Source: a virus. From it: a stretch of 64,000 nucleotides of DNA. The translations under genes were made by a program, and so were the position numbers. The stretch spans positions 22,601 to 86,600 of the IMG/VR virus record IMGVR_UViG_3300030109_003951; one strand, given 5' to 3'. Below are positions 1,005-41,005 of this stretch, one piece after another. Every line of letters begins with the position of its first letter. Positions within the stretch are counted from its first letter, which is position 1. The notes below the pieces were generated by a model, which saw nothing but the letters and a program-made list of their open reading frames with translations, searched no databases and was not told the DNA's origin.

Positions 1005-1391
1005 ATGGCAGCAATGGATAAAGACACAAGGCTTGTAATGACGATACTGTTCGTAGGGGCGGTATCTGGAACGAATGTATATTTTTATAGTGCGTATGGT
1101 TCAGAATTACCATTTACAAATTTTGCACACGCAGTACTATTTGGATTTTTAACTGTTGGAGGAATCATGGGACTAAAAGCATGTTTTGATTTAGCAGTTA
1201 ATGATAGAATGGAACTTTGGTTATTAGACCGTAAGATTAAAATTTACTGGGAAAAGAAACAAAGAGAAACTCAACAAAAACAAAAAATTAGAGAGTCGAT
1301 GAATACTTATGGTTCATATATTCCCCCACAAAAACAAACTACCCAAGATAATGAGGTTCCAAACACATTCCTAGCATCAATAGAGCAGTAG
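1005..1391 (+). CDS. membrane protein (2 predicted TM helices, coiled-coil tail)
   Basis: Hydrophobic stretches LVMTILFVGAVSG and FAHAVLFGFLTVGGIMGL, then a K/Q-rich helix. Confidence 0.75.
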   Translation: MAAMDKDTRLVMTILFVGAVSGTNVYFYSAYGSELPFTNFAHAVLFGFLTVGGIMGLKACFDLAVNDRMELWLLDRKIKIYWEKKQRETQQKQKIRESMNTYGSYIPPQKQTTQDNEVPNTFLASIEQ

Positions 1392-1400
1392 GTGTGTTAG

Positions 1401-1607
1401 ATGCCTTTTCTCCCATCAATTACTGGCAACGAACAAGTAGCCTATGATATGAGTAGAGCGCATTCTGCTGATTTATTTTTTATCAAGATGAGAGCATGGT
1501 TTTGGGGAGTAACTGCTAGTGTTGCTTGTTTCTTATTAGGTCATATGATTGGCGTACTTGGTATCAATCTATATGAAATGGTGTGGGGTTGGTTTGGTGG
1601 TCATTAA
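1401..1607 (+). CDS. small membrane protein
   Basis: 68 aa with long hydrophobic C-terminal half; stop overlaps the GTPase ATG (TAATG). Confidence 0.7.
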   Translation: MPFLPSITGNEQVAYDMSRAHSADLFFIKMRAWFWGVTASVACFLLGHMIGVLGINLYEMVWGWFGGH

Positions 1608-2272
1608 TGTCATTAATGGCTGGATTTGCCGTAGTCGCTGCTGATATTGCTTTAGGGATATATCATAAATTAAACACTATACCTTTTGGTGTATATGGTG
1701 CTACTAGAGTTGGTAAAACAACACTACACAATCAATTAAGAACAAGGGGCGAGGTTGCCGAAATTAAAAAAAGAACAGTGGGTTTACAACGGGCTACTAG
1801 AAAATCAGTTAAGATAGATGGCGATGCTAGAACTTTAAAAACTGCCGATATAGGTGGAGAGTCAAAGTATTGGGATTTATGGAAAAAAGATATGAAAGAT
1901 AGAAAAGTAGATTATATTATTTTTGTAATTGATGATAGGCACTTAGAACAAACTTACAATTTAGAAAATCAATTAGCATGGACTTATCTTGTAGATTTAG
2001 TTTGTGACGATTATTGGCACATAGGTAAAAAAAGAAAAAAGAAAAAAAAGTTTCCTAAAGCAGTTGGCTTGTGGGCAAACAAATATGATAAGTGGGGAAA
2101 GGAACATAATTACGAAGGGCCAATAGAAGAACACCCTATATTTCAGTCATTTAAGTATGGGATGCAGCGATTACATGATAAAGGAATACCCACTCACAAG
2201 TACATCGTGAGTGCAAAATCCGACCCAGAAATGGTATATCGTGGAGTAATGACAATGATAAAAGACTATTGA
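1607..2272 (+). CDS. Arf/Sar-like small GTPase (Ras superfamily)
   Basis: G1 GATRVGKTT, G2 RTVG, G3 DIGG(E), IIFVIDD, G4 NKYD, G5 SAK; hydrophobic N-terminal helix; start moved to the coupled ATG at 1607. Confidence 0.88.
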   Translation: MSLMAGFAVVAADIALGIYHKLNTIPFGVYGATRVGKTTLHNQLRTRGEVAEIKKRTVGLQRATRKSVKIDGDARTLKTADIGGESKYWDLWKKDMKDRKVDYIIFVIDDRHLEQTYNLENQLAWTYLVDLVCDDYWHIGKKRKKKKKFPKAVGLWANKYDKWGKEHNYEGPIEEHPIFQSFKYGMQRLHDKGIPTHKYIVSAKSDPEMVYRGVMTMIKDY

Positions 2273-2273
2273 G

Positions 2274-2918
2274 ATGATAAAAATGATGCAAGGAAATTAT
2301 AATGGAGGGTTAATTGGTAATACACAACATAACCCATTTGACAAACCTAGTAAAATCGCAAGATTAGCAGGGCCGATGATGGAATATAAATTTGAAAATA
2401 CAGCCCCCAAAAAAAAGTTAAAAGAATTAAGAAAAGTTTTGTTACCAGAAAAAAGAAAATTTTTACTTTTGAAGTTTGGCTACAAGTATAACATCCGTAA
2501 TAGATGTTTAGTGTGTGGCTCATGGCATGAGTGGGAAGCATCTGACCCATTAAGGGCTGGTATCATATTATCAGAAGTAACTAAAGGAAGACCGCTCCAA
2601 GGAACTTATTGTCCTAGACATGCTAACATGTATAAACAATTTGAAATGCTTCAAGATGAAGTTTTGGCTGACAAACATGGCTTAGAATTTAAAAGATATA
2701 TCCCTAAACCGAGAATCCCGTTAATGTCACAAGGGCCAATGACTAACCTAAATCAAGCGCAAGTTTCAAGTCTGATAGCCGCAGGGTGGTTAATACAGCC
2801 GCCCAAAGGCACCAAGGAGATTCCGAAAGAACAATACGTTAGATTGATGTCGGAGATACAAGGCAAACTAAAACAAATAGAAAATTTAGTAGGAGTGATA
2901 GACAATGGTGAGGAGTAG
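2274..2918 (+). CDS. putative Zn-binding protein in the GTPase operon
   Basis: CLVC...CPRH ligand set; C-terminal helix. Confidence 0.65.
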   Translation: MIKMMQGNYNGGLIGNTQHNPFDKPSKIARLAGPMMEYKFENTAPKKKLKELRKVLLPEKRKFLLLKFGYKYNIRNRCLVCGSWHEWEASDPLRAGIILSEVTKGRPLQGTYCPRHANMYKQFEMLQDEVLADKHGLEFKRYIPKPRIPLMSQGPMTNLNQAQVSSLIAAGWLIQPPKGTKEIPKEQYVRLMSEIQGKLKQIENLVGVIDNGEE

Positions 2919-3594
2919 TACATTAAATACAGCGTTACAAGGTCAACAAACAAACACATTCAAAACAATGAATAATCTGTTAACATTACAAGATAATCAT
3001 GTTGAAGAATTTTTACAGTATCACGGTCATGAATTTTTCTTAGGTATAGAGAAGTTCTTAGAAGATATTGTAGAGAGAGTCATGAGTCAAATGTTATCTA
3101 AGTTAGAATTCAATGTAGATAATACCAGTGGCTCAATGAAATTAAATGAATATTGTCTAAAGGAATATGAACGAATTACACAAGAAAATATCGAACTAGA
3201 TATTCAAACCATTCTTGCTGCTTCTCTAAACATGGAAGTAGTTAATCAAAGAAGGTTAGCAAAAAACAGTTATTTAGAATCTCAAGGATTTAATCCTCAA
3301 AGCCCTGCTTCTCCAGCAGGACAAGGAATGCCAGCAAATCAAGGAATGATGCAAGGCCAGATACAAGGTCAACCAATGGGCGGTCAAATGAATCAACAAA
3401 TGGCTATGCAACAAAATAATCAATCTGGTTATCCTGTTCCGCCAGCAGGTTACGATAATTACGGCAATCCATACTGGGTAGACCCTAATAATGGACAAGT
3501 CACTTACACTGCCCCATCTAGTGGGTTAGGTATTGGTCGTGCGGCTATGCAAGGAATTGGTAAAGCGGCTGCATGGGCCAAGTGGTTAGCATGA
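2905..3594 (+). CDS. helical protein with Q/M/G-rich low-complexity region and C-terminal amphipathic helix
   Basis: QGMPANQGMMQGQIQGQPMGGQ tract, PPAGYDNYGNPYW, ends GIGKAAAWAKWLA. Confidence 0.7.
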   Translation: MVRSSTLNTALQGQQTNTFKTMNNLLTLQDNHVEEFLQYHGHEFFLGIEKFLEDIVERVMSQMLSKLEFNVDNTSGSMKLNEYCLKEYERITQENIELDIQTILAASLNMEVVNQRRLAKNSYLESQGFNPQSPASPAGQGMPANQGMMQGQIQGQPMGGQMNQQMAMQQNNQSGYPVPPAGYDNYGNPYWVDPNNGQVTYTAPSSGLGIGRAAMQGIGKAAAWAKWLA

Positions 3595-4559
3595 GTATAA
3601 CAATAAACATCCCGTTCCCAGATAAAAAGGGGTTCGTTGAAAGTAAATTAAATGTAGATGATATTACAAATCATTTCTTAGATTGGCTTATTGGGTGTTA
3701 TGATGGTGGAGAAGAAATATGTGGTCTGTTACCATATTATATGTCAAACATTGAAGAAGTTTTTTCAGATAAAGAAAATACTAATTTAGATATGACTCAA
3801 GATTATTTTAAAAAGGCACTTGATGAATTAAGAAATACTAGAATTGATGAAGCAGTTCAAGAAAGAATAAATAATAAAAAATTAAATTTAGACCTTAATT
3901 TAGAAAATCCTAATTTAGAAAATTGGACTTTCCAAGATGTAGATAGTTACAAAGAAGAATTCGTAGGGGCAAAAGATGATGGTGGCCAAATTTTTAATGA
4001 ACATAGATTTGATAAATCTTTATGGTCTAATGTAGAATATACTAACTCTGATTCTAAATATGAAGATGGTATTTTTTCATACACTGCACAAGCAAAAAGT
4101 TCAACTAAAAATTTCTTAACAAAACAAATAGAAAACTCAAAATCTTATTCGAGAGTTAAGTGGGTAAGGACACAAGAAAAACCAGTTATACTAACTATGA
4201 AAAAATTATCTAAAGACTTTCTTAAAGATTTAGGTGAGGCCACACTAGATACTGATACCCTTGATGATGTGTTTAGAGGAATTAGTTGGTTTGAAAAAAT
4301 GGACGATAGTTTTTGGAAATCTAAAGCAGGGTTTAGGTCTAACTCAGATTATTTATTGAACCCTAATATTCTTCTTGAATATGATATAAAGATACCAATT
4401 ACTAAAAACTCAATAGGAAAACCCACAATTGTAGCAAAACCAATACAAGAAGTTTCTTTACAAGGCGAACAACGTAAAGGAGTAAAAGATGATTTGTGGC
4501 GACACCTAAAAGGTAAAATGAAAGTATTAGAAAGATATGTTACGGAGGCAACTACATGA
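3591..4559 (+). CDS. hypothetical protein
   Basis: Long ORF; ATG at 3591 overlaps the upstream stop. Confidence 0.65.
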   Translation: MSITINIPFPDKKGFVESKLNVDDITNHFLDWLIGCYDGGEEICGLLPYYMSNIEEVFSDKENTNLDMTQDYFKKALDELRNTRIDEAVQERINNKKLNLDLNLENPNLENWTFQDVDSYKEEFVGAKDDGGQIFNEHRFDKSLWSNVEYTNSDSKYEDGIFSYTAQAKSSTKNFLTKQIENSKSYSRVKWVRTQEKPVILTMKKLSKDFLKDLGEATLDTDTLDDVFRGISWFEKMDDSFWKSKAGFRSNSDYLLNPNILLEYDIKIPITKNSIGKPTIVAKPIQEVSLQGEQRKGVKDDLWRHLKGKMKVLERYVTEATT

Positions 4560-15900: not shown

Positions 15901-18900
15901 ACAGAAGGCTCAACTCTTATTGGTACTAGTTCTTCCTCAGATGGTAGGGCTAGAGGATATTTCTTAGATGAAATTAGAGATGTTGGAGATTTAGATATTG
16001 GTTTTTATGCAAAGGCAAGAGATGAAGGAATACACACAATAAATTCTTTATCACATTACACTGTTGTAAATATAGAAAGTGGAGAAGGTGAAGTGGCTAT
16101 TGAATTAGCCCCTAATTGTCCTGCCATTCTAGCAAGAGTAGATAGGAATGCAAACGATATAAGATTTGAAACTGTAACTGTAACCACTACACAAATAGAT
16201 GCTGCTAGTGATGATGATAGTTCTCAAACTTTTTTTGATGGTACTACTTATGCAGTAGGGCATAGAAACTCAATAACAGTAGATACTGGTAGTCCTAACG
16301 TCAATATTGGTGAAGGAAACCCTGTTTACAAAAGTGATGGAACATTCGTAGGTATTATTTGGAAAATTCTTGCCGTCACTGGGGCCACTACTCCAAGTGA
16401 ATGGCAAGTTCTTTTTTATTCGGCTCTACCAGTTAGTTTAACTGAAAATGAACAATTGTATGTTTGTAATACTAAATATACACATGGAATGTATTTTATA
16501 AATACTCAAGGATTAAATGATGGGGGTTTATTAATGCACGTCCATCCAAGTTTAGGTAACAGTAGAAAACCAATAAGATTTACTGGTAATTTTACAACTG
16601 CATATAAATCCATAACCCCGACAATAGAAAATAAGTCAACCAGTGACAGATATGGTGAGCCAATATATCGTTATATTGATTTACAAAGAGGTACAAAAGG
16701 CGGTCTTAGGAGAACTACTAATAATAGAGTAACAGGTCAAAAACATTTAGAGTATAAAGTGCAAAGTGGAAATATTCATGCTTATGCTCCAGCGTTTAAA
16801 GCAAAACAAGGAATAGTTGGGACTTTCCACCAACCTGTCCCCATCACAAAAGATAGTAAATCTGACGACTTTAATGGTGGTGGGATAGGCAGACCAGAAT
16901 CTAGAGGAGTTGGGCCAGCACATGGTAGTAATACATTAGACGAATCTATAAAAAATAAAGGGTATTCCCATTTTAGTAGAATTGCAAAAATAGCAGCCGT
17001 TTCTGGAAATGCTTGGGCAATAGATGCTGCTACAGGAACAGGCTTTGGTGACGGTGCGTCACATGGAGCAAGTGTAACAAATATTTACGGCAAAGTAGAT
17101 AATTGGAGATGGGGAAATCCTTTAGAAAAATTAAAAAATATAGTAGAAAGATTAGACCCTAAAACTATAAGTTATCATTTATTTTCCCCTTGTGATTTAT
17201 TTCCAGAATCCATGTCTAGACCAAATCATTTAGGATATGCTGCTAGAGATTTAACTGATTATAATTTAGTATTACACGATAGGGGGGCTTATAGAAGGTC
17301 TGATGTATTACATGAAAGTTATGCAGGTTCATTATCTTCACATGAAATGACAGACGAATCTTTTGAAACTGTACCAATTACTTCATCTTCTATTACTGGC
17401 GACCAAATTAAAAGATTTGGTTTGATGAGATTAATTGAATTAACATTTGATTGGCATTTTAATGTAATTGATGCTGAGAACCCTCCCGAAGATGATACTA
17501 GTATAGATGGTGATGATGAATACCAATTTTTCCCATCAAGGGCTATGAATACTTATACTCCTGCTGGTTCTTATAAAATCACAAGTTGGGATAGTATCAC
17601 AGTTGCTAATGTTCAAAAATATACTAGTGGTTCTTGGGGTACTCCTAATGAAGCGACTATTGATGCTGATTTTGCAAATCAAACTAATGAAGCGGGCGCA
17701 GGTATTCTTTATACTGAGACTGGGGATTTAATTGGGTATGTTGGTAGCAGTGGGTCAGCATCTTCCGCAGACGGCAAATTGACAATAACAGGAGGAGGAA
17801 GTCCTGTAACTCAATTTCCAACAGGTTCAGATTCATTATATACTGGGGTTGTTTTTCAATTTAGACATATAAAAACTAATATAAATCAAGGTAAATTTAG
17901 TAATGTTCTAAGAGGGGTAGGAGAAGCAGACTCTACTGTAGCCACAAGTACATCCAAATATCATCAATTAAAAGGTGCAGTATTTTCTGGAAGATATTTT
18001 GGTGGTGCAAATTATGATGACAATGCCAAAGATACCACTCTCAATTTTAGTACGGCTTCTGGTTCTATTGGGTTTGCTAAAACAGGAGATAACGCAACCA
18101 CAATACAATCTGAATTTGCTACAGGTAGTTTCACTGGAAATCCTGCTTCAACAGGCAGTGGGGTAATAACAAATATTAGTATAAACACATCTAATTTAGC
18201 AGTAGGAGATTATGTTTTTAGTAGTGAAGTTTCTGGAGCAATCGCTAGTATAGATGCTTCTGACGAAATTACTCTTGATGTTAATAACACTGGAACTACT
18301 GCTGGCCAAACAATTTTTTATGTTAGAGATGATAATTTAGCACTATTAAGATTGCCTCCAGTATTTGATAATATAAGTGGCACTTGGACTGGAAATCCGT
18401 TTTTGTTTGAAGACCCAGACAGTGTATATGCAACTCAAACTCATCATGCTCAAGGAGATATGTTTTTTACTTCTAGAGTTATGTATTATTTATCACAAGG
18501 TCTTCATATTTATAGGGGAACTAAAGCCGTTGTTCTTGATAGATTTAGTATTGAAGATACTACCTCTGAAACATTATCTAAAGGGATGGTTTTCCCTGTC
18601 TCTGATATGTTTTACAAACATTATCAAAGTGGTTCAAGCAACCAACACGTAGAACTTTTTTTAAAAATGTCTAGTAAGAAATTCCAGTCTAATGCTTCTG
18701 ATGCTACAGAATATCCCACTACTGGCCCATACATACAATTCGCTAACAAAAATTCTAATGGAGTAGTTAATACTAATGTTACAACTGAAAATGCTGCTAA
18801 TAATGTTGGGGATGGGGCGAAAGTTGTATTCAAACCTTTATTACATTTAAATCAAGGAGGGTATAGTAGCGATACTCCTGTACAAAATGAATTTTGTGTT

Positions 18901-20886
18901 ATTGATTTTGGTGAAGACGATGGTGATGATATTCTACCAAGTGGGTATTCTACTTCTGCAAACACTGGCTCTGTAGGAAAAATTACTATCACTTTAGATG
19001 GTTCTACAGGGGATGCTGATGAAAACAGTTGGCTATTGTTCTCTCCCAATTTAACTGGGTATTACTTAGTTTCAACAGAAGGTTATGACCAAGACGGGAA
19101 TAGAAATTCCAATGATAATGCTGCTTACCCTACTGGTACTTGGAGTAATGGCACTGCTAATGCTGATAACGCTCATTTACCTTTTTTGGCAAGTCCAGAA
19201 GGATTAATCCCAAAACATATAATGCATGTTATCAGTCATGAAATTGTATTAGGTAATGAGTCTGATGGAGATGCAGGAACAGCAGGTAACGATGGTACGC
19301 CATATAACACAACACAAAAACACATATTGATAGTAGATAATTTAAACACAAGTTCTACTTTTATTTCTAATTATTATATGATTATGAGGCCAGCAGAAAC
19401 TTGTATATATCCTAATACCCCTCATAATAAAATTGATTTATACAAGTGTAGTTCTAAATATACAAAACAAGCATACAGTGACGAAATGTATTCGACTACT
19501 GCTCACATAAATATTTGGAACGGAGAAAATGTTGGAGGATTTAAAAACCGAATCGGATTTAATGAGGCAGTTCAATCTATGTACGTTTTAGTAAATACTG
19601 ATTCAACATCTAGTGATATTCAATTAGTTCCTAGAGGTGTCGAAAACATCGCTAATACAGGCTCAACATATGGAACATCTAGCCCGACCTTTAATTATTA
19701 TTCTACACTGTTTGGAAAAGACAAAAGATTTGAAGACGGTATTTCTTATGACGTGTTGTTAAATGATGGCGATGTTAATGAAAGAAAACAAATGGGTGTA
19801 TCTGTTAGTGCTATTGCTAATGAGTTAAAATGTAGATTAAATTTCGGTTCTAAATTTTCTAATAAAATGGCAGGTATAGTTTCTGTTGGGGAAATATTTA
19901 CAGTAAAAACCCCATTACCCTCTAAAATAAGAAACCCAGTCAAAGCAAATATTGCATCTACAGTTACTATTGCATCTGAGGCAGAAGATATAGTTAAAAA
20001 TATAATGAAAACACATGATATTGATTTTACAGAAACGGCTTTAGAATATCCTTATTTCACAGGGCCAGAATTTAATGGCACTGATTTATATAATTCTATA
20101 AAATATTTATTAGACTTTAAAGATAAAAGGTTGATTGTAAAGCCTAGCGGTATTACTTTAAGACCAGATACTTCTGATTTAGATTATTCTCCAATAAGAA
20201 TATCAGAAAAAGATAGCACAGTTCAAGTAATAGATGTCCATAAAGAAGATTCACGTTACGATTTTTATAACGAAATAATAGTATATGGTAGAGATGTAAA
20301 ATCAATTAGAAGATTAAATAGAAGTGTAAAAGAGATAGGAAGAAAAACATTAGAACATGTGGACGAAACCATAGTTACTCAAACCGAGGCGGATTCTAAA
20401 GCATTAAAATTATTAAATTTACATAGTAAAAGTACTTTTAGGATAACTGTAAAAATACCAATAACTAATGTCGAATTACTTAGAGTTGGTGACATTATTA
20501 CTATGCATTTCCCGAATAAAAATATACCCAATGGGGAATATTTAATTTTTGAAATAAGATATAATAATATGGGTATTATGGAATTAGAAGTTGGCGCATA
20601 CAATAAAGGTTTAACAGATAGCATCGCTGAACTTATGGTCAAAAATAAAAAGACTCTTTCGTTCTTGAGGTCAACCAGATTTAAGGCTGTAGACGAAAGT
20701 TCTAACTTTTTTGATACTGTTAAAATTAGAGATATTAAGTTAACAGTTAGTAAAACTGGGGTGTTTGGAACCCCATTTACCATTGGATTTAATTATGCAG
20801 TTAATGTAGCGAGTAACAGCGTGGGATTCAACCCAAGTTTAGGTTCAGTTGGTACAGAGATAATTTTAGAGGAGGAACTAGTATGA
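12997..20886 (+). CDS. giant tail-tip/hub (host recognition) protein
   Basis: 2629 aa, beta-rich; hub-like IFKGKVE..ITGR and C-terminal YNEIIVYG...LRVGDII...YLIFEI segments. Confidence 0.75.
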   Translation: MAGVGLYQLTVMKEGSTPMTTITGSNIQFSVPTNPLLKDKNSFAVSSFKLVCYEIYNSATAPTASGTSSSANGVSNSDGSSDATLSGLVNKAYPTGITGVAINNGGGYSTSNDTFTVDGRDATLYFSEGDEVFDDGGNLIGTINAVTSTSIELKANALVAVSDDEVLRSNASDSFDDYLSNLGRTKPYRLRVFDAERAIGQEMSTLNTNIATNDFFVVIHADNANLHHVAKITNVIASDGGTHDFIEFDPPMAADIPINTKFSIYKGPLKTRTDAVAVAYGLLNTETNFDSSGDGSDDITVNKHIEYTYVAAPNFYFYNDRLRKDDQLDHDTKYAIRRTILKSDNSEDHSVSIFTTKSEFGKFISDTGEYNHHGLLVDNLRTADEVTLTVAGQTITQDNVTAYRRYVDDNDGDATPFGLSSKTVSYDPDTTVWADFALNISRERSGKITTAFGDGPKRYLYYDDSAIKNEIIPRVMDVQFSDSITDAGSYAEIKIADTQNIMAKKIKIYDPIELKQLVSRGEITHLENSKLFGTITSQSSGDTVLVFDGLEEGQDLRTLLAFGSLFETIRINSHRYRISAIGAPSNGSQQVTISHHRASDASSFSSGGLQENLTSAVAHRRTWSKLTSTLMVDFTIDTQISYNSLPLSADIVIGSDTLSYNGVALTDFSESRINGLELTLLGNNNFRGQRVKVKYGDAKNGYVKLQDFTRSHYSTLSQGTGLTTNNMVQGYFPVDVMTNIAGVTTYQSAVNLTDTSLKTPSLLDYFSGGFVVEKTIFKGKVETLEEKTEFGGSQILNITGRSDISKLLNPVLNKGFKFSEDWVYSTLSPYQEITDSTKNTAETVEIGEVAIDASASGILTGDIIFNSSGRFMGVCGDSGSTFKLEDGSLSYSGNSKDIFKSTYNLLDSNITGSSASSSSNHILFGKAITSNPLLINTPTPLKGVSDKGFFFTGGNRLTFKITSELLDSTEGSTLIGTSSSSDGRARGYFLDEIRDVGDLDIGFYAKARDEGIHTINSLSHYTVVNIESGEGEVAIELAPNCPAILARVDRNANDIRFETVTVTTTQIDAASDDDSSQTFFDGTTYAVGHRNSITVDTGSPNVNIGEGNPVYKSDGTFVGIIWKILAVTGATTPSEWQVLFYSALPVSLTENEQLYVCNTKYTHGMYFINTQGLNDGGLLMHVHPSLGNSRKPIRFTGNFTTAYKSITPTIENKSTSDRYGEPIYRYIDLQRGTKGGLRRTTNNRVTGQKHLEYKVQSGNIHAYAPAFKAKQGIVGTFHQPVPITKDSKSDDFNGGGIGRPESRGVGPAHGSNTLDESIKNKGYSHFSRIAKIAAVSGNAWAIDAATGTGFGDGASHGASVTNIYGKVDNWRWGNPLEKLKNIVERLDPKTISYHLFSPCDLFPESMSRPNHLGYAARDLTDYNLVLHDRGAYRRSDVLHESYAGSLSSHEMTDESFETVPITSSSITGDQIKRFGLMRLIELTFDWHFNVIDAENPPEDDTSIDGDDEYQFFPSRAMNTYTPAGSYKITSWDSITVANVQKYTSGSWGTPNEATIDADFANQTNEAGAGILYTETGDLIGYVGSSGSASSADGKLTITGGGSPVTQFPTGSDSLYTGVVFQFRHIKTNINQGKFSNVLRGVGEADSTVATSTSKYHQLKGAVFSGRYFGGANYDDNAKDTTLNFSTASGSIGFAKTGDNATTIQSEFATGSFTGNPASTGSGVITNISINTSNLAVGDYVFSSEVSGAIASIDASDEITLDVNNTGTTAGQTIFYVRDDNLALLRLPPVFDNISGTWTGNPFLFEDPDSVYATQTHHAQGDMFFTSRVMYYLSQGLHIYRGTKAVVLDRFSIEDTTSETLSKGMVFPVSDMFYKHYQSGSSNQHVELFLKMSSKKFQSNASDATEYPTTGPYIQFANKNSNGVVNTNVTTENAANNVGDGAKVVFKPLLHLNQGGYSSDTPVQNEFCVIDFGEDDGDDILPSGYSTSANTGSVGKITITLDGSTGDADENSWLLFSPNLTGYYLVSTEGYDQDGNRNSNDNAAYPTGTWSNGTANADNAHLPFLASPEGLIPKHIMHVISHEIVLGNESDGDAGTAGNDGTPYNTTQKHILIVDNLNTSSTFISNYYMIMRPAETCIYPNTPHNKIDLYKCSSKYTKQAYSDEMYSTTAHINIWNGENVGGFKNRIGFNEAVQSMYVLVNTDSTSSDIQLVPRGVENIANTGSTYGTSSPTFNYYSTLFGKDKRFEDGISYDVLLNDGDVNERKQMGVSVSAIANELKCRLNFGSKFSNKMAGIVSVGEIFTVKTPLPSKIRNPVKANIASTVTIASEAEDIVKNIMKTHDIDFTETALEYPYFTGPEFNGTDLYNSIKYLLDFKDKRLIVKPSGITLRPDTSDLDYSPIRISEKDSTVQVIDVHKEDSRYDFYNEIIVYGRDVKSIRRLNRSVKEIGRKTLEHVDETIVTQTEADSKALKLLNLHSKSTFRITVKIPITNVELLRVGDIITMHFPNKNIPNGEYLIFEIRYNNMGIMELEVGAYNKGLTDSIAELMVKNKKTLSFLRSTRFKAVDESSNFFDTVKIRDIKLTVSKTGVFGTPFTIGFNYAVNVASNSVGFNPSLGSVGTEIILEEELV

Positions 20887-24475: not shown

Positions 24476-24837
24476 AAGTGCAATTTTACCCAAACATACC
24501 CCTTCTACCCCTACCTTTGCGTTGCCACTTTTTTTAGTTGTAACATGTTACAAAAATAAATTGTGTTCACTTTCATTTACAAATACACGTTACAAAAATT
24601 TAACAAAAGAATATTTTAAAAAAAATTAGTTTTATGTATTTTCAAACTTCTTCTCTATCTGGAACACTTCTGGTTTTGGCGGACTTCGAGGTTTGATGCT
24701 TACGATAGTTTTCGACTTGGAAGGCTTACTCACAATTAATCCAAAAATAAAAGTCCAAAAGTAAAAAGATAAAGTTAGCATCAAATCATACGACATGACG
24801 CAAGTAAGTTTAATCGAATTATATTTTTTTCCCAAAA

Positions 24838-31284: not shown

Positions 31285-31451
31285 TATAATTCCTCCTTCC
31301 ATTCTTCAATTACTTGTTCTATTTTTGAAATTAAATTAATTATTTTTTTTTGATTGTTTGTTAAGACATTTACTTGTCCCTGTAAAGATTCTATTTTAAT
31401 TTGCATTCTAGTTACTTTTTTATCATCTCTAACTTCTTTCTTCCAAAACAT
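31284..31451 (-). CDS. small coiled-coil protein (55 aa)
   Basis: Read manually; overlaps both neighbours by 1 nt. Confidence 0.5.
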   Translation of the reverse strand: MFWKKEVRDDKKVTRMQIKIESLQGQVNVLTNNQKKIINLISKIEQVIEEWKEEL

Positions 31452-32254
31452 CAAAACCAATCCTCCAATGTTTTTTGTTTAGGGTCAGCATAAATATGAT
31501 ACATATCCCAACCCATTGCTTTGTATATAGGTTCGGCTTTGTTTATACAGTAACCTGCGTAATATTCGTAATCTATTTCTATTTTACCTTCATCTAATAA
31601 AGGTAATAATTCATTTTTTTCTTTGACTGAAATATAAGTAGCAACTCTAGAAGTCCCATCATTTAATGGGATTGTCTTAGGGCCAGATAATATGTTACAT
31701 TTGATTGTGATAAAAGAATCAGTTATGGGGTCGGACGAGTTCAAGTGTGTGTTATAATAAACTGCACCAGCAACTCCACCCGCTAATGTTGCATAATCAT
31801 TAATAGATTTCCTAAGCCTTGACCTCTTAAGAAAACTATCCATTTCTATTTTACCTTTCTTAATATTTTGATATGCTTGTTTTAAATACTTAGTAACTTC
31901 TTTTTCAGTTTTACCATTAGCCCACATTTTTAAAACCATCTCTTGTATAATTTTTGCAATGTGTATTTCAGTAGATTTCTTTACTGCAAATCCTGTAACT
32001 ACAAATTCTGGTTCATCTAAATGTTCACCATCTTTCCAAGATATAAAACCAGCATTACGGTTTTTAGTAATACCTATACCGAGAGAAGAATAAAACTTTT
32101 CAAACTCTAAAGTTACAGGGTGTTGGTCTAACCCAAGTATATTAGGAAATATTTCCCTAACCTGTTGATTAAGATAATTACACGTATCTTTAGCATGGTC
32201 TATCGACTCAACAGGACAAAACAAAGAATCAGTATGAGCGTATATTACTTTCAT
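31451..32254 (-). CDS. polB: family B DNA polymerase, C-terminal subunit
   Basis: Motif C YAHTDS, LEFEK, thumb region, C-terminal PIP-like KQKTLEDWF. Confidence 0.9.
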   Translation of the reverse strand: MKVIYAHTDSLFCPVESIDHAKDTCNYLNQQVREIFPNILGLDQHPVTLEFEKFYSSLGIGITKNRNAGFISWKDGEHLDEPEFVVTGFAVKKSTEIHIAKIIQEMVLKMWANGKTEKEVTKYLKQAYQNIKKGKIEMDSFLKRSRLRKSINDYATLAGGVAGAVYYNTHLNSSDPITDSFITIKCNILSGPKTIPLNDGTSRVATYISVKEKNELLPLLDEGKIEIDYEYYAGYCINKAEPIYKAMGWDMYHIYADPKQKTLEDWF

Positions 32255-32496
32255 AAATTCAACTCCTTCCAGCATTTTTTATGATATTTTCTAGATGCCC
32301 AATCCTTGTGTGGTGCGCCTCCTCTACGGGCGAAACCAATGGGTTGTAATGCCCCACGACAATGTAAACAATAACCATGTGGAACCCACTCATAATCACA
32401 TTCTACACACACAACTAATCCCTTACCTTTTATTACTGTTTTATAAGCCTCAGTTCCTTTACATCTTCTACATATGTGTGTGGCCTCGTCACTCAT
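32251..32496 (-). CDS. double Zn-finger protein between the polB halves
   Basis: CRRC, CVEC, CLHC, HKKC. Confidence 0.65.
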   Translation of the reverse strand: MSDEATHICRRCKGTEAYKTVIKGKGLVVCVECDYEWVPHGYCLHCRGALQPIGFARRGGAPHKDWASRKYHKKCWKELNL

Positions 32497-32713
32497 CCCA
32501 AACCCTCCATCTTGCAGGATAATCATATTTATTTAATCTGACAAATTCTTTGTGTCTTTTTAGAATGTTACTCAATCCTTGAATTGTAGGGCATGTCCTA
32601 AAATGCCTATCAACATAAATATCATAAATTTCTCTGGTGGTCATTTCACCATCACCTAATATATTTATTGCTTGTTGAATAATTCTCTGATATTTATTTT
32701 TTGCACTGGGCAT
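32489..32713 (-). CDS. winged-HTH protein between the polB halves
   Basis: MTTREIYD...PTIQGLSNILK...W. Confidence 0.65.
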   Translation of the reverse strand: MPSAKNKYQRIIQQAINILGDGEMTTREIYDIYVDRHFRTCPTIQGLSNILKRHKEFVRLNKYDYPARWRVWDE

Positions 32714-34362
32714 TATAATCCCTCCGCAACTTTAGCAGCATGTCTGATTGCTTCTCTAGCACTAGCAGTGATGCTGTTCGCTAAATCTGGGTCATACCAA
32801 CCAAACTTAGGAAACGCAGTTACCCCATAGAAACTCGCCATGAGTCTCTTTACAGCCATTTGATTGTTAAACCATTTTTGATGTTCTTCCTTAGTGTCTG
32901 CTTTTTTCATTTTAGACTTGTATTCATCTCTAAGTTGTTTAAGATTAAGAACAGACCTTGGTAATAAACCAAGTTTGTCTGTTTTGTAATATCGCATGTT
33001 CTTTTTAATTACAGGGCTAAAGTCCTGTGGTGTTGCCAAATTACAAGCAAACTCTGTAGGTGTGCGAGACTTAGTTTCCCAACTAATATTCCTAGCCATC
33101 ATCATAGAAGGATATAGTTGTGCAAAATCAAAAGCCGCAACATTACTATGCCTACCATGCGTTTTGTTTACTTCTGGGTCAAATATCATGGCCCCAGTAA
33201 CTTCTACTCTCTCAGCATCTTTATTACCTGTCGGCACTTTCCAATCAGCATGTCTCATGAAGTAAATGCCTCCCATGTGAGAAGCATAAAAACACGCACT
33301 AAATGGTGCAACTAGTAATCTTTGTAATGCTAATATAGATTCTGATATTGCATTATCTTCATCTATGCGTTTTAGTAAAGCAACATCTTGAATATTATAA
33401 TCTAAATAATTTTGAGTATCTTCTAACCAAGCCCTTCTAAAGAATTCGTTTTTGTCTGTGAATTTAGAATCTTTCTTTTTACCTTCCCCGAATAAAAGAT
33501 TACCAACAAAATCTAAAGCAGTAGATGGAAGTGTGCCACGTTGAGCATCGTTCCATTGTCTTTCAAATGCATGGTCTAAGTTTAAACACAATCTACCATA
33601 GATAGGTTGAGATATAGGTGATATTTGATTCCATGCCTTTTTGTTGGGTTTGACCAACCCTATAGGAGATAGTCTACTAATATCAATATTATTTTCTTCT
33701 AACCTTTCAAACAACTTAGGAATATCTGCTTGTAATCCAAACCATGCAATCAACATGTCTGGGTCTTGTTCTTCCATATCAGAAACGAAAGCCTCAAGCA
33801 TATCTTCTTCTGAATTAAAATGATATTCCGCAGCATCGACTACAATCATATCTAGTTTAGCATCTTTGGGAGTCCAATAGTATAAGTTTATGCAATCTGC
33901 ATAATTATCGTAAACTGCAATAGTTGTTATCGCCCCATCATATTTACCTGTGTTCATCCATTCCATATCCCAATACCACTTACGTAAATCATACTCTGGT
34001 ATTTCAGTCATTTTATCAATACAATAACGATGTGTAAAATTAACATCTGCTTCATACGTTTTGTCAAAGTATTTTCTAGCGGTTCTAATATCATTATATT
34101 TAGTAACCATAACTTTAGTCAAAGGTTGGTTTTCCAAATTAACATGGCTAGTTCTTTCATAAATAAACTCTTGAGGTAGTTTCATCTTTCTACCTTGAGA
34201 ATTAGTAACACTGATGTTATATGCTTGCGGCATTCTTTCGTCAGAACCAACATAAAAATACGGTCTAAAATCAGTGACTTCTTTTTCTAATCTATTACCA
34301 TTTTCATCACGCCATCTAAGATAAATAGTGTTATCTTTATGTGTGATAATCATGTGTCTCAA
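32713..34362 (-). CDS. polB: family B DNA polymerase, N-terminal subunit (exonuclease, motifs A and B)
   Basis: DME, YNIQD, DFAQLYPS, KRLMASFYG. Confidence 0.92.
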   Translation of the reverse strand: MRHMIITHKDNTIYLRWRDENGNRLEKEVTDFRPYFYVGSDERMPQAYNISVTNSQGRKMKLPQEFIYERTSHVNLENQPLTKVMVTKYNDIRTARKYFDKTYEADVNFTHRYCIDKMTEIPEYDLRKWYWDMEWMNTGKYDGAITTIAVYDNYADCINLYYWTPKDAKLDMIVVDAAEYHFNSEEDMLEAFVSDMEEQDPDMLIAWFGLQADIPKLFERLEENNIDISRLSPIGLVKPNKKAWNQISPISQPIYGRLCLNLDHAFERQWNDAQRGTLPSTALDFVGNLLFGEGKKKDSKFTDKNEFFRRAWLEDTQNYLDYNIQDVALLKRIDEDNAISESILALQRLLVAPFSACFYASHMGGIYFMRHADWKVPTGNKDAERVEVTGAMIFDPEVNKTHGRHSNVAAFDFAQLYPSMMMARNISWETKSRTPTEFACNLATPQDFSPVIKKNMRYYKTDKLGLLPRSVLNLKQLRDEYKSKMKKADTKEEHQKWFNNQMAVKRLMASFYGVTAFPKFGWYDPDLANSITASAREAIRHAAKVAEGL

Positions 34363-39574: not shown

Positions 39575-41005
39575 TCATCTCACATAACTTATAACATCTT
39601 CAAGTGTGCTAATATCTGCAACTGGTTTATCATATCTTATTGCTACCATTCTAGGAAATCTTAGTGTCCAACCATATTCTGTTTTGGTGATTAAATCTGC
39701 ACACACAGATAATACAATTCTTGGTAAAAATTCATATGTACCATTATGGAATTTGATAACAGTTCTTTTTAATTTGTTAGTTATTAACTTGCGTTCTTCA
39801 TTACTAAACCCAACACCAACTGAACCTACATTGGCAAAACCACCTTCATCTTTAACAGAAATATCAAATGAAGTAAAGACAGATTGGTGTTTTCCTTTGC
39901 CATGTCTAGCAGAAGTAATCACAACATCCAAGTCTATCTTAGCAGGTTTGAATTTTAACCATGACCTTTTTGCAGGTTCGTATATTCCGTTAGCATCTTT
40001 TAACATGATTCCTTCAAAACCATCAGAAATCGCTTGAGCATAAAATAAATTTTTGTGCTTTTCAAATGAATTATAATCTGGGAAGTTCGTATATTTTATT
40101 GACCTGTATTCTTCTGGGACAATATCTTCTATAAATTTTAATCTCTCACGCAACGGTGTATTTTCAAAAAGATAATCAAACACTGCTAACTTCACAGGAC
40201 ATTTTTCTATAGCCTGTTTTATATCATTAGAATGTATTCTAGAATTTATATTTTTGAGAGGGGCTGGTTTACCTTTCTCTACTGGATAAATCTCACCGTC
40301 TAAAATATAATTACCGTTGTCCCAATTCTTTATTATGTCAACAACATCTGGAAACTTTTTAGTTATGTCTTTACCTATCCTATTGAATAATAATACGATG
40401 TCACCTTGCCTATGTATTTGTACTCTAACCCCATTATACTTGTATTCCATAATCAAGGGCCAAGTATCTGGTATTCCCTTGAGAGGTTTTGCTAACTGTG
40501 GTGGGACGGCAACACCCACTTGAAATTTTATTTTAAGTTCTCCAAACATTTTTCTCACAACACCATCATCTATTCCATTTCTAGGTTTTCGCAACCAGTA
40601 ACGAATAAACCATTTGATTTCATTATTCTTCATTTTATGAAAAGCCTCTTTAATTAAAACAAACGCATTAGATTCTGTTTTGCTACAATCTAATTCTAAA
40701 AGGTGTTTTATTTGTTTTACCGTATAATCTGATTCATTACTATTTTCAACATACCATTTTATGCCTTCACCAATATCACCATGTATTTTTATTTGTTGAG
40801 ATATATCATCTTCCAACACTTCATAAATTTTAGCAAGCCAAACAATTGCTTTTTTCTCTCCCATAAAATTAGCATCTAAATTAAGGCCGAGTATTTCTTT
40901 GGCCTCATTTGTCAAATTAGATGTTTTAACTATACCTTCTTTTTCATTGAGAGATTTTCTATTTTGAATTGCTTCGCACATTCTGGCGAAATCAGACCAG
41001 AGCAA
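39575..41005 (-). CDS. lig: ATP-dependent DNA ligase
   Basis: EYKYNG, LDGEI, FDYL, EGIMLK, WLKFK, LRFPR. Confidence 0.93.
   Translation of the reverse strand: MLWSDFARMCEAIQNRKSLNEKEGIVKTSNLTNEAKEILGLNLDANFMGEKKAIVWLAKIYEVLEDDISQQIKIHGDIGEGIKWYVENSNESDYTVKQIKHLLELDCSKTESNAFVLIKEAFHKMKNNEIKWFIRYWLRKPRNGIDDGVVRKMFGELKIKFQVGVAVPPQLAKPLKGIPDTWPLIMEYKYNGVRVQIHRQGDIVLLFNRIGKDITKKFPDVVDIIKNWDNGNYILDGEIYPVEKGKPAPLKNINSRIHSNDIKQAIEKCPVKLAVFDYLFENTPLRERLKFIEDIVPEEYRSIKYTNFPDYNSFEKHKNLFYAQAISDGFEGIMLKDANGIYEPAKRSWLKFKPAKIDLDVVITSARHGKGKHQSVFTSFDISVKDEGGFANVGSVGVGFSNEERKLITNKLKRTVIKFHNGTYEFLPRIVLSVCADLITKTEYGWTLRFPRMVAIRYDKPVADISTLEDVISYVR

Follow-up and report, generated by a model that had tools for sequence, protein, structure and literature searches.

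For an archaeal host without ESCRT, the closest functional analogy to the system described here is ArvABC. In Haloferax volcanii, the small GTPase ArvA, a PF01926 protein with an N-terminal helix and with Arf as its closest family, is needed for the formation of extracellular vesicles (PMC10927574), and it is encoded together with ArvB (DUF2073) and ArvC, a DUF2072 Zn-ribbon protein (PMC10927574; review PMC10791045). Here we describe a five-gene cassette, consisting of genes A and B, a small GTPase gene, and genes D and E, in a magrovirus, a tailed virus of Marine Group II archaea. The cassette is located in a stretch of 64,000 nucleotides (the window), which represents positions 22601-86600 of the 86.6-kb virus record IMGVR_UViG_3300030109_003951; the record is ~92% complete according to CheckV. 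The viral cassette resembles ArvABC in having an Arf-like PF01926 GTPase of Euryarchaeota with an N-terminal helix and an adjacent Cys-containing protein, and differs from it by the addition of two integral membrane proteins and a Gln-rich protein. By analogy, the cassette may work like ArvABC, but its sequences indicate that it is not a copy of it.

Marine Group II archaea are abundant in the ocean, and the host of this virus is uncultured. An earlier note, made from the letters of this DNA alone, had read the five genes as a candidate GTP-gated lysis, vesicle or virion-release module, and our analysis partly supported that interpretation. We tentatively read the cassette as encoding a GTP-controlled assembly that would act at the host cytoplasmic membrane late in infection, most likely for virion release. 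Newly found here were the presence of the cassette in three lineages, its relocation, its prevalence in a capsid-selected sample, a Glu/Gln polymorphism with repeated switching in the GTPase, the orphan fold of D, and a negative test for ArvB and ArvC. No GTPase was mentioned in the searchable magrovirus papers, and the literature on small or Arf-like GTPases in archaeal viruses held only speculation on ArvA and Arf genes on a mobile-like Asgard region (PMC11529989).

Members of the Arf family (Arf1, Arf6, Arl2/3/6/8 and Sar1, and the Asgard ArfR1 structures 8OUM, 8OUN and 8OUK) shared only ~15-22% identity with the viral GTPase. The viral protein differs from them by a polybasic hairpin insert before strand 5, by Glu at the position of the catalytic Gln in half of group 1 (the lineage of the window), by an N-terminal helix that is hydrophobic rather than amphipathic and that lacks Gly2, and by its occurrence in a virus of Euryarchaeota. 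SR-beta also combines an N-terminal hydrophobic membrane anchor with a following Arf-like G domain; however, it is a eukaryotic protein of protein targeting, and an SR-alpha/SRX-like partner was not recognized. The SR-beta profile PF09439 matched 5 of 21 family members (best E 5.9e-6), and one distant relative carried a precomputed SR-beta label; the window GTPase scored 17.0 bits against a cut-off of 25 bits. The mimivirus Rab (PDB 5XC5) and the Arf GTPases of the Asgard mobile-like region (PMC11529989) were captured recently and group with cellular Rab or Arf. Unlike the viral cassette, they do not occur in tailed viruses of prokaryotes and have no fixed set of membrane partners.

Conservation of the cassette in three virus lineages

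A relative of the GTPase was present at 559 IMG/VR loci. The best 80 of these were compared, and gene order was assessed where the contig had enough flank. The order u3-A-B-GTPase-D-E-(variable)-d2-d4-tail tube was kept wherever the contig reached, so that the linkage of the GTPase to the membrane genes, which the earlier note had described in one genome, was maintained in related viruses. The GTPase formed more than 310 protein clusters with 59-72% identity, on contigs of up to 96 kb, and was the most conserved gene of the set (60-66% identity, compared with 38-56% for D and 30-45% for the tail tube). This conservation is far beyond chance. In a separate sample, the capsid protein and not the GTPase served to select relatives (33 records, each 19 kb or longer), and the GTPase was present in 32 of the 33; the exception was a contig that ended ~1.2 kb past the major capsid protein (MCP) gene.

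Equivalent sets were found in two further lineages. Group 2 (P0131-like) comprised 127 IMG/VR loci, with genomes of 92-118 kb that encode a thermosome and a related capsid protein and tail tube. A protein with two transmembrane (TM) helices and a Gln-rich tail and a 1-TM protein preceded the GTPase in this group, and a clear D homologue (69 of 80 loci), a Gln-rich protein and an extra 2-TM protein followed it. The group-2 cassette was located 21-23 kb away from the MCP and tail tube genes, directly downstream of the gene for a giant protein of 2,300 amino acids (aa) that is unrelated to the 2,629-aa tail-region protein of the window. It was bounded by intergenic gaps, and exactly two genes preceded the GTPase in 42 of 47 loci. 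Group 3 (P0130-like, contigs of up to 81 kb) demonstrated the equivalent order plus one extra acidic protein, behind glycosyltransferases, and only the GTPase and one other shared gene were found in this group by tblastn. In locus L172 (1822-5117), the group-3 cassette followed shortly after the genes for a double GT1/GT4 glycosyltransferase of 811 aa and a GT2 glycosyltransferase of 286 aa.

The cassette is autonomous, in that the five-part set was kept together through relocation in three lineages. This persistence is the strongest argument for one functional unit, and since the cassette relocates away from capsid and tail genes, a role as head-tail connector is weakened. Between groups, the GTPase retained ~32% identity and the tail tube ~30%, and this similar divergence is in line with vertical inheritance from long ago rather than with a recent capture.

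When 1.84 billion representatives were searched exhaustively with the family profile, only 85 proteins were returned, mostly fragments of the viral family and singletons. The second tier, to which group 2 belongs, consisted of full-length relatives (E 1e-35 to 1e-24, ~32% identity), and the third of metagenomic singletons; among the latter, P0181 and P0180 were not found in viral contigs, P0181 was not found in metagenome contigs either, and P0198 was a singleton. A cellular family of ~1,700 members was not recovered by the profile in these representatives. Searched against 185,579 species genomes, the GTPase gave only two close copies, both on contigs of one bacterial metagenome-assembled genome. 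These contigs (L161, NZMJ01000101.1, and L162, NZMJ01000024.1; the genome is labelled Maricaulis sp.) encoded u3, A, B, the GTPase, D and E at 46-63% identity and are probably mis-binned viral contigs. As far as these searches go, the GTPase family is apparently isolated and virus-only.

The same searches bear on whether the cassette could be a captured host ArvA-ArvB-ArvC operon that hijacks vesicle formation. Both GTPases are PF01926 proteins with Arf as the next or closest family, both carry an N-terminal helix, and a Cys-containing protein follows the GTPase in both systems. However, OapB/ArvB (PF09846) gave no match at E ≤ 0.1 in four magrovirus genomes (G000, G001, G002 and G003) with positive Haloferax and Methanosarcina controls, and OapC/ArvC (PF09845) gave none in the virus genome (G000), again with positive controls including Haloferax. 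D had no Pfam match at E ≤ 1, the profile found the 85 proteins and not the ~1,700-member cellular family, the only two close copies in species genomes were on viral-type contigs with the full cassette, and the divergence of the GTPase tracks that of the tail tube, as expected of old vertical inheritance. Capture is largely refuted for ArvB and ArvC, and we consider it highly improbable as an origin of the cassette.

In a subset of group 2 (L084 7084-7220; L085-L099), the sequence GGTGAAT, followed after ~10 bases by TTAT(T/G)T, was present 45-60 bases upstream of the first cassette gene and may be a promoter. It was rejected as a general promoter motif: the window had no match, and the single match in L111 was at chance level.

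Genomic position and layout

The window carried the hallmarks of magroviruses: a family-B DNA polymerase, RFC, an ATP-dependent ligase, a thermosome-type chaperonin, a PD-(D/E)XK nuclease and a tail tube protein. The GC content was ~35%; the + strand carried late genes as far as ~24.3 kb, and the - strand carried the replication genes. The cassette region was found in marine DNA metagenomes only, with no RNA dataset listed for it.

Gene content upstream of gene A was supplied by locus L003, which is 96% identical to the window. There, an 820-aa ligase-domain protein, an S78 prohead protease, an HK97/SU10-type MCP and four small open reading frames (ORFs) preceded gene A in this order. A variable gene, two conserved genes, the tail tube gene, the tape-measure protein gene and the gene for the 2,629-aa protein followed the cassette. 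In this lineage the cassette is therefore inside the head-to-tail morphogenesis block, between the protease and MCP genes and the tail tube gene.

All five + strand ORFs, at 1005-3594, were as first described (Table 1). Genes A and B were 9 nucleotides apart, B and the GTPase overlapped in TAATG, a single nucleotide separated the GTPase from D, and D and E overlapped by 14 nucleotides. Five tightly coupled genes in a late-gene context were thus present, as the earlier note had stated. The membrane-protein operon that it had also described was not separately delimited in this lineage, since the junctions to the flanking genes on the capsid side and on the tail side were equally tight.

Table 1. 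Positions in the window of the cassette genes and of features in their products
Feature	Position	Strand	Basis or remark
Gene A, membrane protein of 128 aa; a pair of hydrophobic helices followed by a charged, Gln/Lys-rich tail, predicted to be cytoplasmic	1005-1391	+	ORF
Gene B, 68-aa single-pass membrane protein; N-terminal AYDxxRAHSAD motif	1401-1607	+	ORF; TM 37-55
Small GTPase, 221 aa; hydrophobic N-terminal helix and Ras-superfamily G domain	1607-2272	+	Alternative GTG start 1583
GTPase N-terminal hydrophobic helix, residues 2-22	1610-1672	+	AF2 model; mid-helix acidic residue conserved in group 1
GTPase G1/P-loop, G31-T39, GATRVGKTT	1697-1723	+	G31, G36, K37, T38 and T39 invariant (28 diverse members)
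GTPase G3/switch II, D81-W92, DIGGE then YW..W	1847-1882	+	D81, G83, G84, W89 and W92 invariant (28 members)
GTPase polybasic insert, K141-K148, KKRKKKKK, between helix 3 and strand 5	2027-2050	+	K146 invariant; K147 at least 90% conserved
GTPase G4, N158-D161, NKYD	2078-2089	+	N158, K159 and D161 invariant (28 members)
GTPase G5, S202-K204, SAK	2210-2218	+	Invariant in group 1
Gene D, 214-aa soluble Cys/His protein; C78-x2-C81 ... C113-P-x-H116	2274-2918	+	ORF
Gene E, 229-aa Q/M/G-rich protein	2905-3594	+	ORF
Gene E C-terminal Trp-rich amphipathic helix	3538-3591	+	18-mer; mean hydrophobicity 0.20, moment 0.41

The location of the cassette also bears on a role in entry or against competitors, in which the proteins would be carried in the virion for membrane insertion and ejection or would form a superinfection-exclusion complex. 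The cassette is among structural genes in group 1 and directly after the gene for the giant protein in group 2, and T7-like phages are known to encode ejection proteins in the structural block. However, strongly hydrophobic 2-TM and 1-TM proteins are expected in the membrane of the producer cell and not packaged, a GTPase inside a capsid would have no nucleotide supply, the giant protein of group 2 has no relation to its large counterpart in the window, and exclusion genes are usually early. We regard such a role as rather improbable.

Two other features of the genome were observed. The family-B DNA polymerase was encoded by two ORFs ~440 bases apart, at 31451-32275 (-) and 32713-34362 (-) of the window; the exonuclease domain together with the beginning of the polymerase domain was in the upstream ORF, and the remainder was in the downstream ORF. 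The virus also had two ATP-dependent DNA ligase-domain proteins. The canonical one (476 aa) was in the replication module, at window 39575-41005 (-). The second, the 820-aa protein (G000 17076-19538, equal to L003 812-3274), was directly upstream of the prohead protease, a place where the portal gene might be expected.

The GTPase

The most likely start of the GTPase is the ATG at 1607 and not the upstream GTG, because ~300 homologues give 221 aa at 97% query coverage. GATRVGKTT, RTVG, DIGGE..YW..W, IIFVID, ANKYD and SAK were all present, in agreement with the complete G1-G5 set claimed earlier. The motifs G1 to G5, with the switch-I RT[V]G among them, occurred in order and did not vary among 28 diverse members or among 128 unique sequences from two lineages, and the fold was Ras-like. 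Of the unique sequences of groups 1 and 2 with a G1 pattern, 132 of 132 had GK[TS]. G4 read NK[YFH]D in sequences of group 1 and NKAD in those of group 2, and the G5 of group 2 was MAT, which is nearer to the CAT of Arf. An AlphaFold2 (AF2) model (pLDDT 75, pTM 0.75) showed a Ras-like domain behind helix 2-22, with a beta-hairpin (residues 136-145) that bears the polybasic stretch listed in the earlier note. Foldseek against the PDB returned at least 500 matches at E ≤ 1e-3, and all among the matches listed were small GTPases. The protein is a member of the Ras superfamily (small P-loop GTPases of the TRAFAC class).

The family within this superfamily was less sharply defined. The window GTPase passed three Pfam cut-offs: MMR_HSR1 (29.4 bits, cut-off 21.9, E 9.5e-7), Arf (23.7 bits, cut-off 22.3, E 3.7e-5) and Ras (22.1 bits, cut-off 21.6, E 1.3e-4). 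All three matches were confined to the N-terminal half, and that to MMR_HSR1 covered residues 36-129, the generic half of the G domain. When 21 members of all tiers were compared with Pfam, 10 matched MMR_HSR1, 10 Roc, 8 Arf and 8 Ras, and Arf gave the best single E-value (2.8e-9). In PDB searches, the family profile ranked KRas first (E 0.007) and the single sequence ranked the Asgard Arf 8OUN first. By Foldseek, Ras, Asgard ArfR, Arl13B, Arl6 and Rab11 were tied at E ~5e-8. The top 50 rows of VIA-align included ~36 Arf/Arl and ~9 G-alpha rows, with KRas at rank 37; the Z scores of 15.1-13.9 count as tied. Some members carried the automatic IMG label "GTPase SAR1 family protein".

Arf- and G-alpha-type traits included DxGG[Q/E] with an invariant Trp92 at D+11 and the MAT of group 2 at G5. 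Non-Arf traits were the SAK of group 1 at G5, Ala or Ser instead of Trp before the G3 Asp, and the 24-residue spacing from the switch-I Thr to the G3 Asp. Sequence comparison suggests a separate Ras-superfamily family that leans towards Arf/G-alpha. The Arf pattern proposed in the earlier note thus stood as far as DxGG[Q/E] and the Trp at D+11 are concerned, but membership of the Arf family proper was not established, with other families scoring alike.

A translation- or ribosome-associated GTPase of the MMR_HSR1/Era type, or another cytosolic regulatory GTPase with functionally unrelated neighbours, was also considered, as PF01926 was the best Pfam match (29.4 bits) and matched 10 of 21 family members. 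However, this match spanned only the generic N-terminal half of the G domain, and no accessory RNA- or ribosome-binding domain (KH or others) was found in the GTPase. The structural neighbours were Arf, Arl and G-alpha and not Era or EngA; GTPases of the Era/EngA type were absent from the top 50 rows of VIA-align, which does not exclude them. The five-part neighbourhood was moreover kept in three lineages despite relocation, and a cytosolic role with unrelated neighbours appears very unlikely.

At the residue after DxGG, which corresponds to the catalytic Gln of Arf, 29 unique sequences of group 1 had Glu and 31 had Gln; group 2 had Gln in 47, Glu in 14, Asp in 6 and His in 1. The Glu noted previously was therefore right for the window, but the site is polymorphic and about half Gln. 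The state changed between Glu and Gln at least 5 times on the group-1 tree, compared with ~20 times with shuffled labels. The data suggest that Gln is the common state, as in Arf, and that Glu has been repeatedly tolerated, and they give no sign of a dead enzyme.

Membrane association and partner proteins

Predicted membrane proteins cluster at a single place in the 86.6-kb genome, formed by A, B and the N-terminus of the GTPase. The tape measure was the other large hydrophobic protein, and a few small TM ORFs without family were found in isolation. The N-terminal hydrophobic helix claimed for the GTPase was present at residues 2-22, with a mean hydrophobicity of 0.53 and a moment of 0.27 over 28 members, values that are TM-like rather than amphipathic. 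It is best described as a putative membrane-seeking helix of uncertain depth. The 20-aa stretch before strand 5 had a mean net charge of +3.5 in group 1 and +9.1 in group 2, and it was basic in tiers 2 and 3. An intramembrane salt bridge between the mid-helix Glu of the GTPase and a Lys or His of A or B was considered and rejected, as conservation of this Glu does not extend to groups 2 and 3.

Gene A had been described as a 2-TM protein. Both segments passed the threshold in orthologues, giving two TM helices, but only the second did so in the window (residues 43-61). Across 60 unique orthologues, TM1, the LKAxFDL at the end of TM2 and the C-terminal FL..IE were conserved; identity across loci was 45-73%, and a homologue was detectable in groups 2 and 3 (the group-2 A protein compared with that of L172, 24% identity, E 9e-10). 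Gene B, described as a 1-TM protein, had its predicted TM helix, and its RAHSAD motif was invariant in 58 unique orthologues. Groups 2 and 3 had a gene of the size and topology of gene B at the equivalent place.

The most constant partner of the GTPase was gene D. The CxxC/CxxH motifs of its earlier description as a Zn protein were present (CLVC and CPRH), in keeping with a Cys/His-knuckle protein; its fold was unrecognizable and a Pfam match was lacking. In the ESM Atlas, the best score for D was 0.85, with no family, and nothing usable was obtained for E. In some loci, 1-3 extra small ORFs were present between the GTPase and D, representing a hot spot of insertion.

Gene E consisted of a conserved helical N-domain, a variable Q/M/G-rich linker, a hairpin-like motif (GYPVPP..NPYW.DP..GQ..Y.P) and a C-terminal helix. 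The Q/M-rich composition and the amphipathic C-terminal helix reported earlier were both found, and the protein ended in ...AAWAKWLA with a moment of 0.41. Among 52 unique orthologues the blocks were conserved and the ...AAWAKWL end was invariant, and groups 2 and 3 had a Gln-rich protein of a size near that of E at the equivalent place. At residues ~172-208 (window 3420-3530), the pattern GYPVPP.GYDNY.NPYW.DP..GQ..Y.P was kept in the 52 orthologues. A WW domain was considered for the NPYW.DP..GQ motif beside a Pro-rich stretch; the resemblance to a three-stranded sheet was loose, no Pfam WW match was obtained at E ≤ 1, and the candidate was rejected.

The slot after gene E (window 3573-4559) was another insertion hot spot, with different genes in different relatives. 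Its gene encoded 328 aa in the window, was 43% identical or undetectable in relatives, and encoded 1,326 aa in L038 (10092-14072). Hot-spot sites in other loci were L005 8660-9073, L046 8660-9830 and L132 8721-9774.

Function of the cassette

In the proposed mechanism, the GTPase would be held on the membrane by its N-terminal helix and basic hairpin, beside A and B, and D and E would bind it as regulator or effector. Its GTP/GDP state would set when the assembly acts on the bilayer, and the most likely action would be to open or disrupt the host membrane for virion release. This would take place in a host that lacks peptidoglycan and for viruses with no recognizable holin or endolysin. The mode of action would resemble that of Arf/Sar1 and ArvA, namely nucleotide-gated membrane engagement, with separate ancestry.

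In scans with Pfam, PHROGs and NCBIfam, neither A, B, D and E nor the other small TM ORFs matched a recognizable holin, endolysin or spanin family, in keeping with the earlier observation that no holin or endolysin was visible. The cassette resembles the holin-endolysin cassettes of tailed phages in being a compact cluster of small late membrane proteins in a lytic tailed virus; it differs from them in that no holin, endolysin or spanin family was detected by these scans and in that the host has no peptidoglycan. We know of no lysis cassette that includes a GTPase. A 67-aa ORF with a single TM helix and without a known family was located at window 24632-24835 (-), at the junction of the late genes (+ strand) with the replication genes (- strand), and is an alternative holin-like candidate.

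The evidence on the membrane and the GTPase would equally serve membrane remodelling without lysis, in which the cassette would produce vesicles or a membrane-bound platform that serves replication, genome packaging or the assembly of virions, in the manner of Arf1/Sar1 coat nucleation or of vesiculation by ArvA. The cassette is embedded between capsid and tail genes in this lineage, and ArvA is an example from Euryarchaeota of a small GTPase able to drive the formation of vesicles (PMC10927574). Against this, the cassette of groups 2 and 3 is far from capsid and tail genes, so that its link with morphogenesis is not a conserved one; coat-like proteins were not recognized, and a need for membranes during assembly is not known for tailed viruses. 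We consider remodelling without lysis unlikely, although less so than a role in entry or exclusion. A defence or anti-defence role was rejected, with only noise-level PADLOC matches (pAgo E 0.011, Cas6 E 0.037).

Several observations weigh against the assembly for virion release that we favour. The position inside the head-to-tail block of the window fits an assembly or virion role equally well, and the isolated small TM ORFs elsewhere in the genome could be holins of an unknown family. No coat-like or pore-like fold was found among the cassette proteins, and D had neither a Pfam match at E ≤ 1 nor a recognizable fold. The GTPase helix passed the TM threshold in part of group 1 and nowhere in group 2, and it is not of the Arf-type amphipathic kind. 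The variation among Glu, Gln, Asp and His after DxGG may be a sign of slow or partner-assisted hydrolysis.

A more specific form of the release reading is that tailed archaeal viruses without holin and endolysin use a release machine built on a membrane-bound, virus-only Arf-like GTPase whose guanine-nucleotide state would serve as timer or trigger. In such a machine, the GTPase, its two membrane partners and its two soluble partners would break or bud the host membrane. We hold this specific form to be possible but doubtful.

Implications

To our knowledge, the route by which any tailed archaeal virus exits its host is still unknown. A conserved virus-only GTPase together with membrane proteins provides a concrete, testable gene set for host exit. 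If the cassette is a release machine, it would represent GTP-gated lysis without a counterpart in bacteriophages, and it would be a mechanistic parallel to coat nucleation by Arf/Sar1 that evolved independently in viruses of Euryarchaeota. The finding extends Arf-like membrane-engaging GTPases beyond eukaryotes, Asgard archaea and ArvA to viruses of prokaryotes, and it bears on how often nucleotide-gated membrane engagement has evolved.

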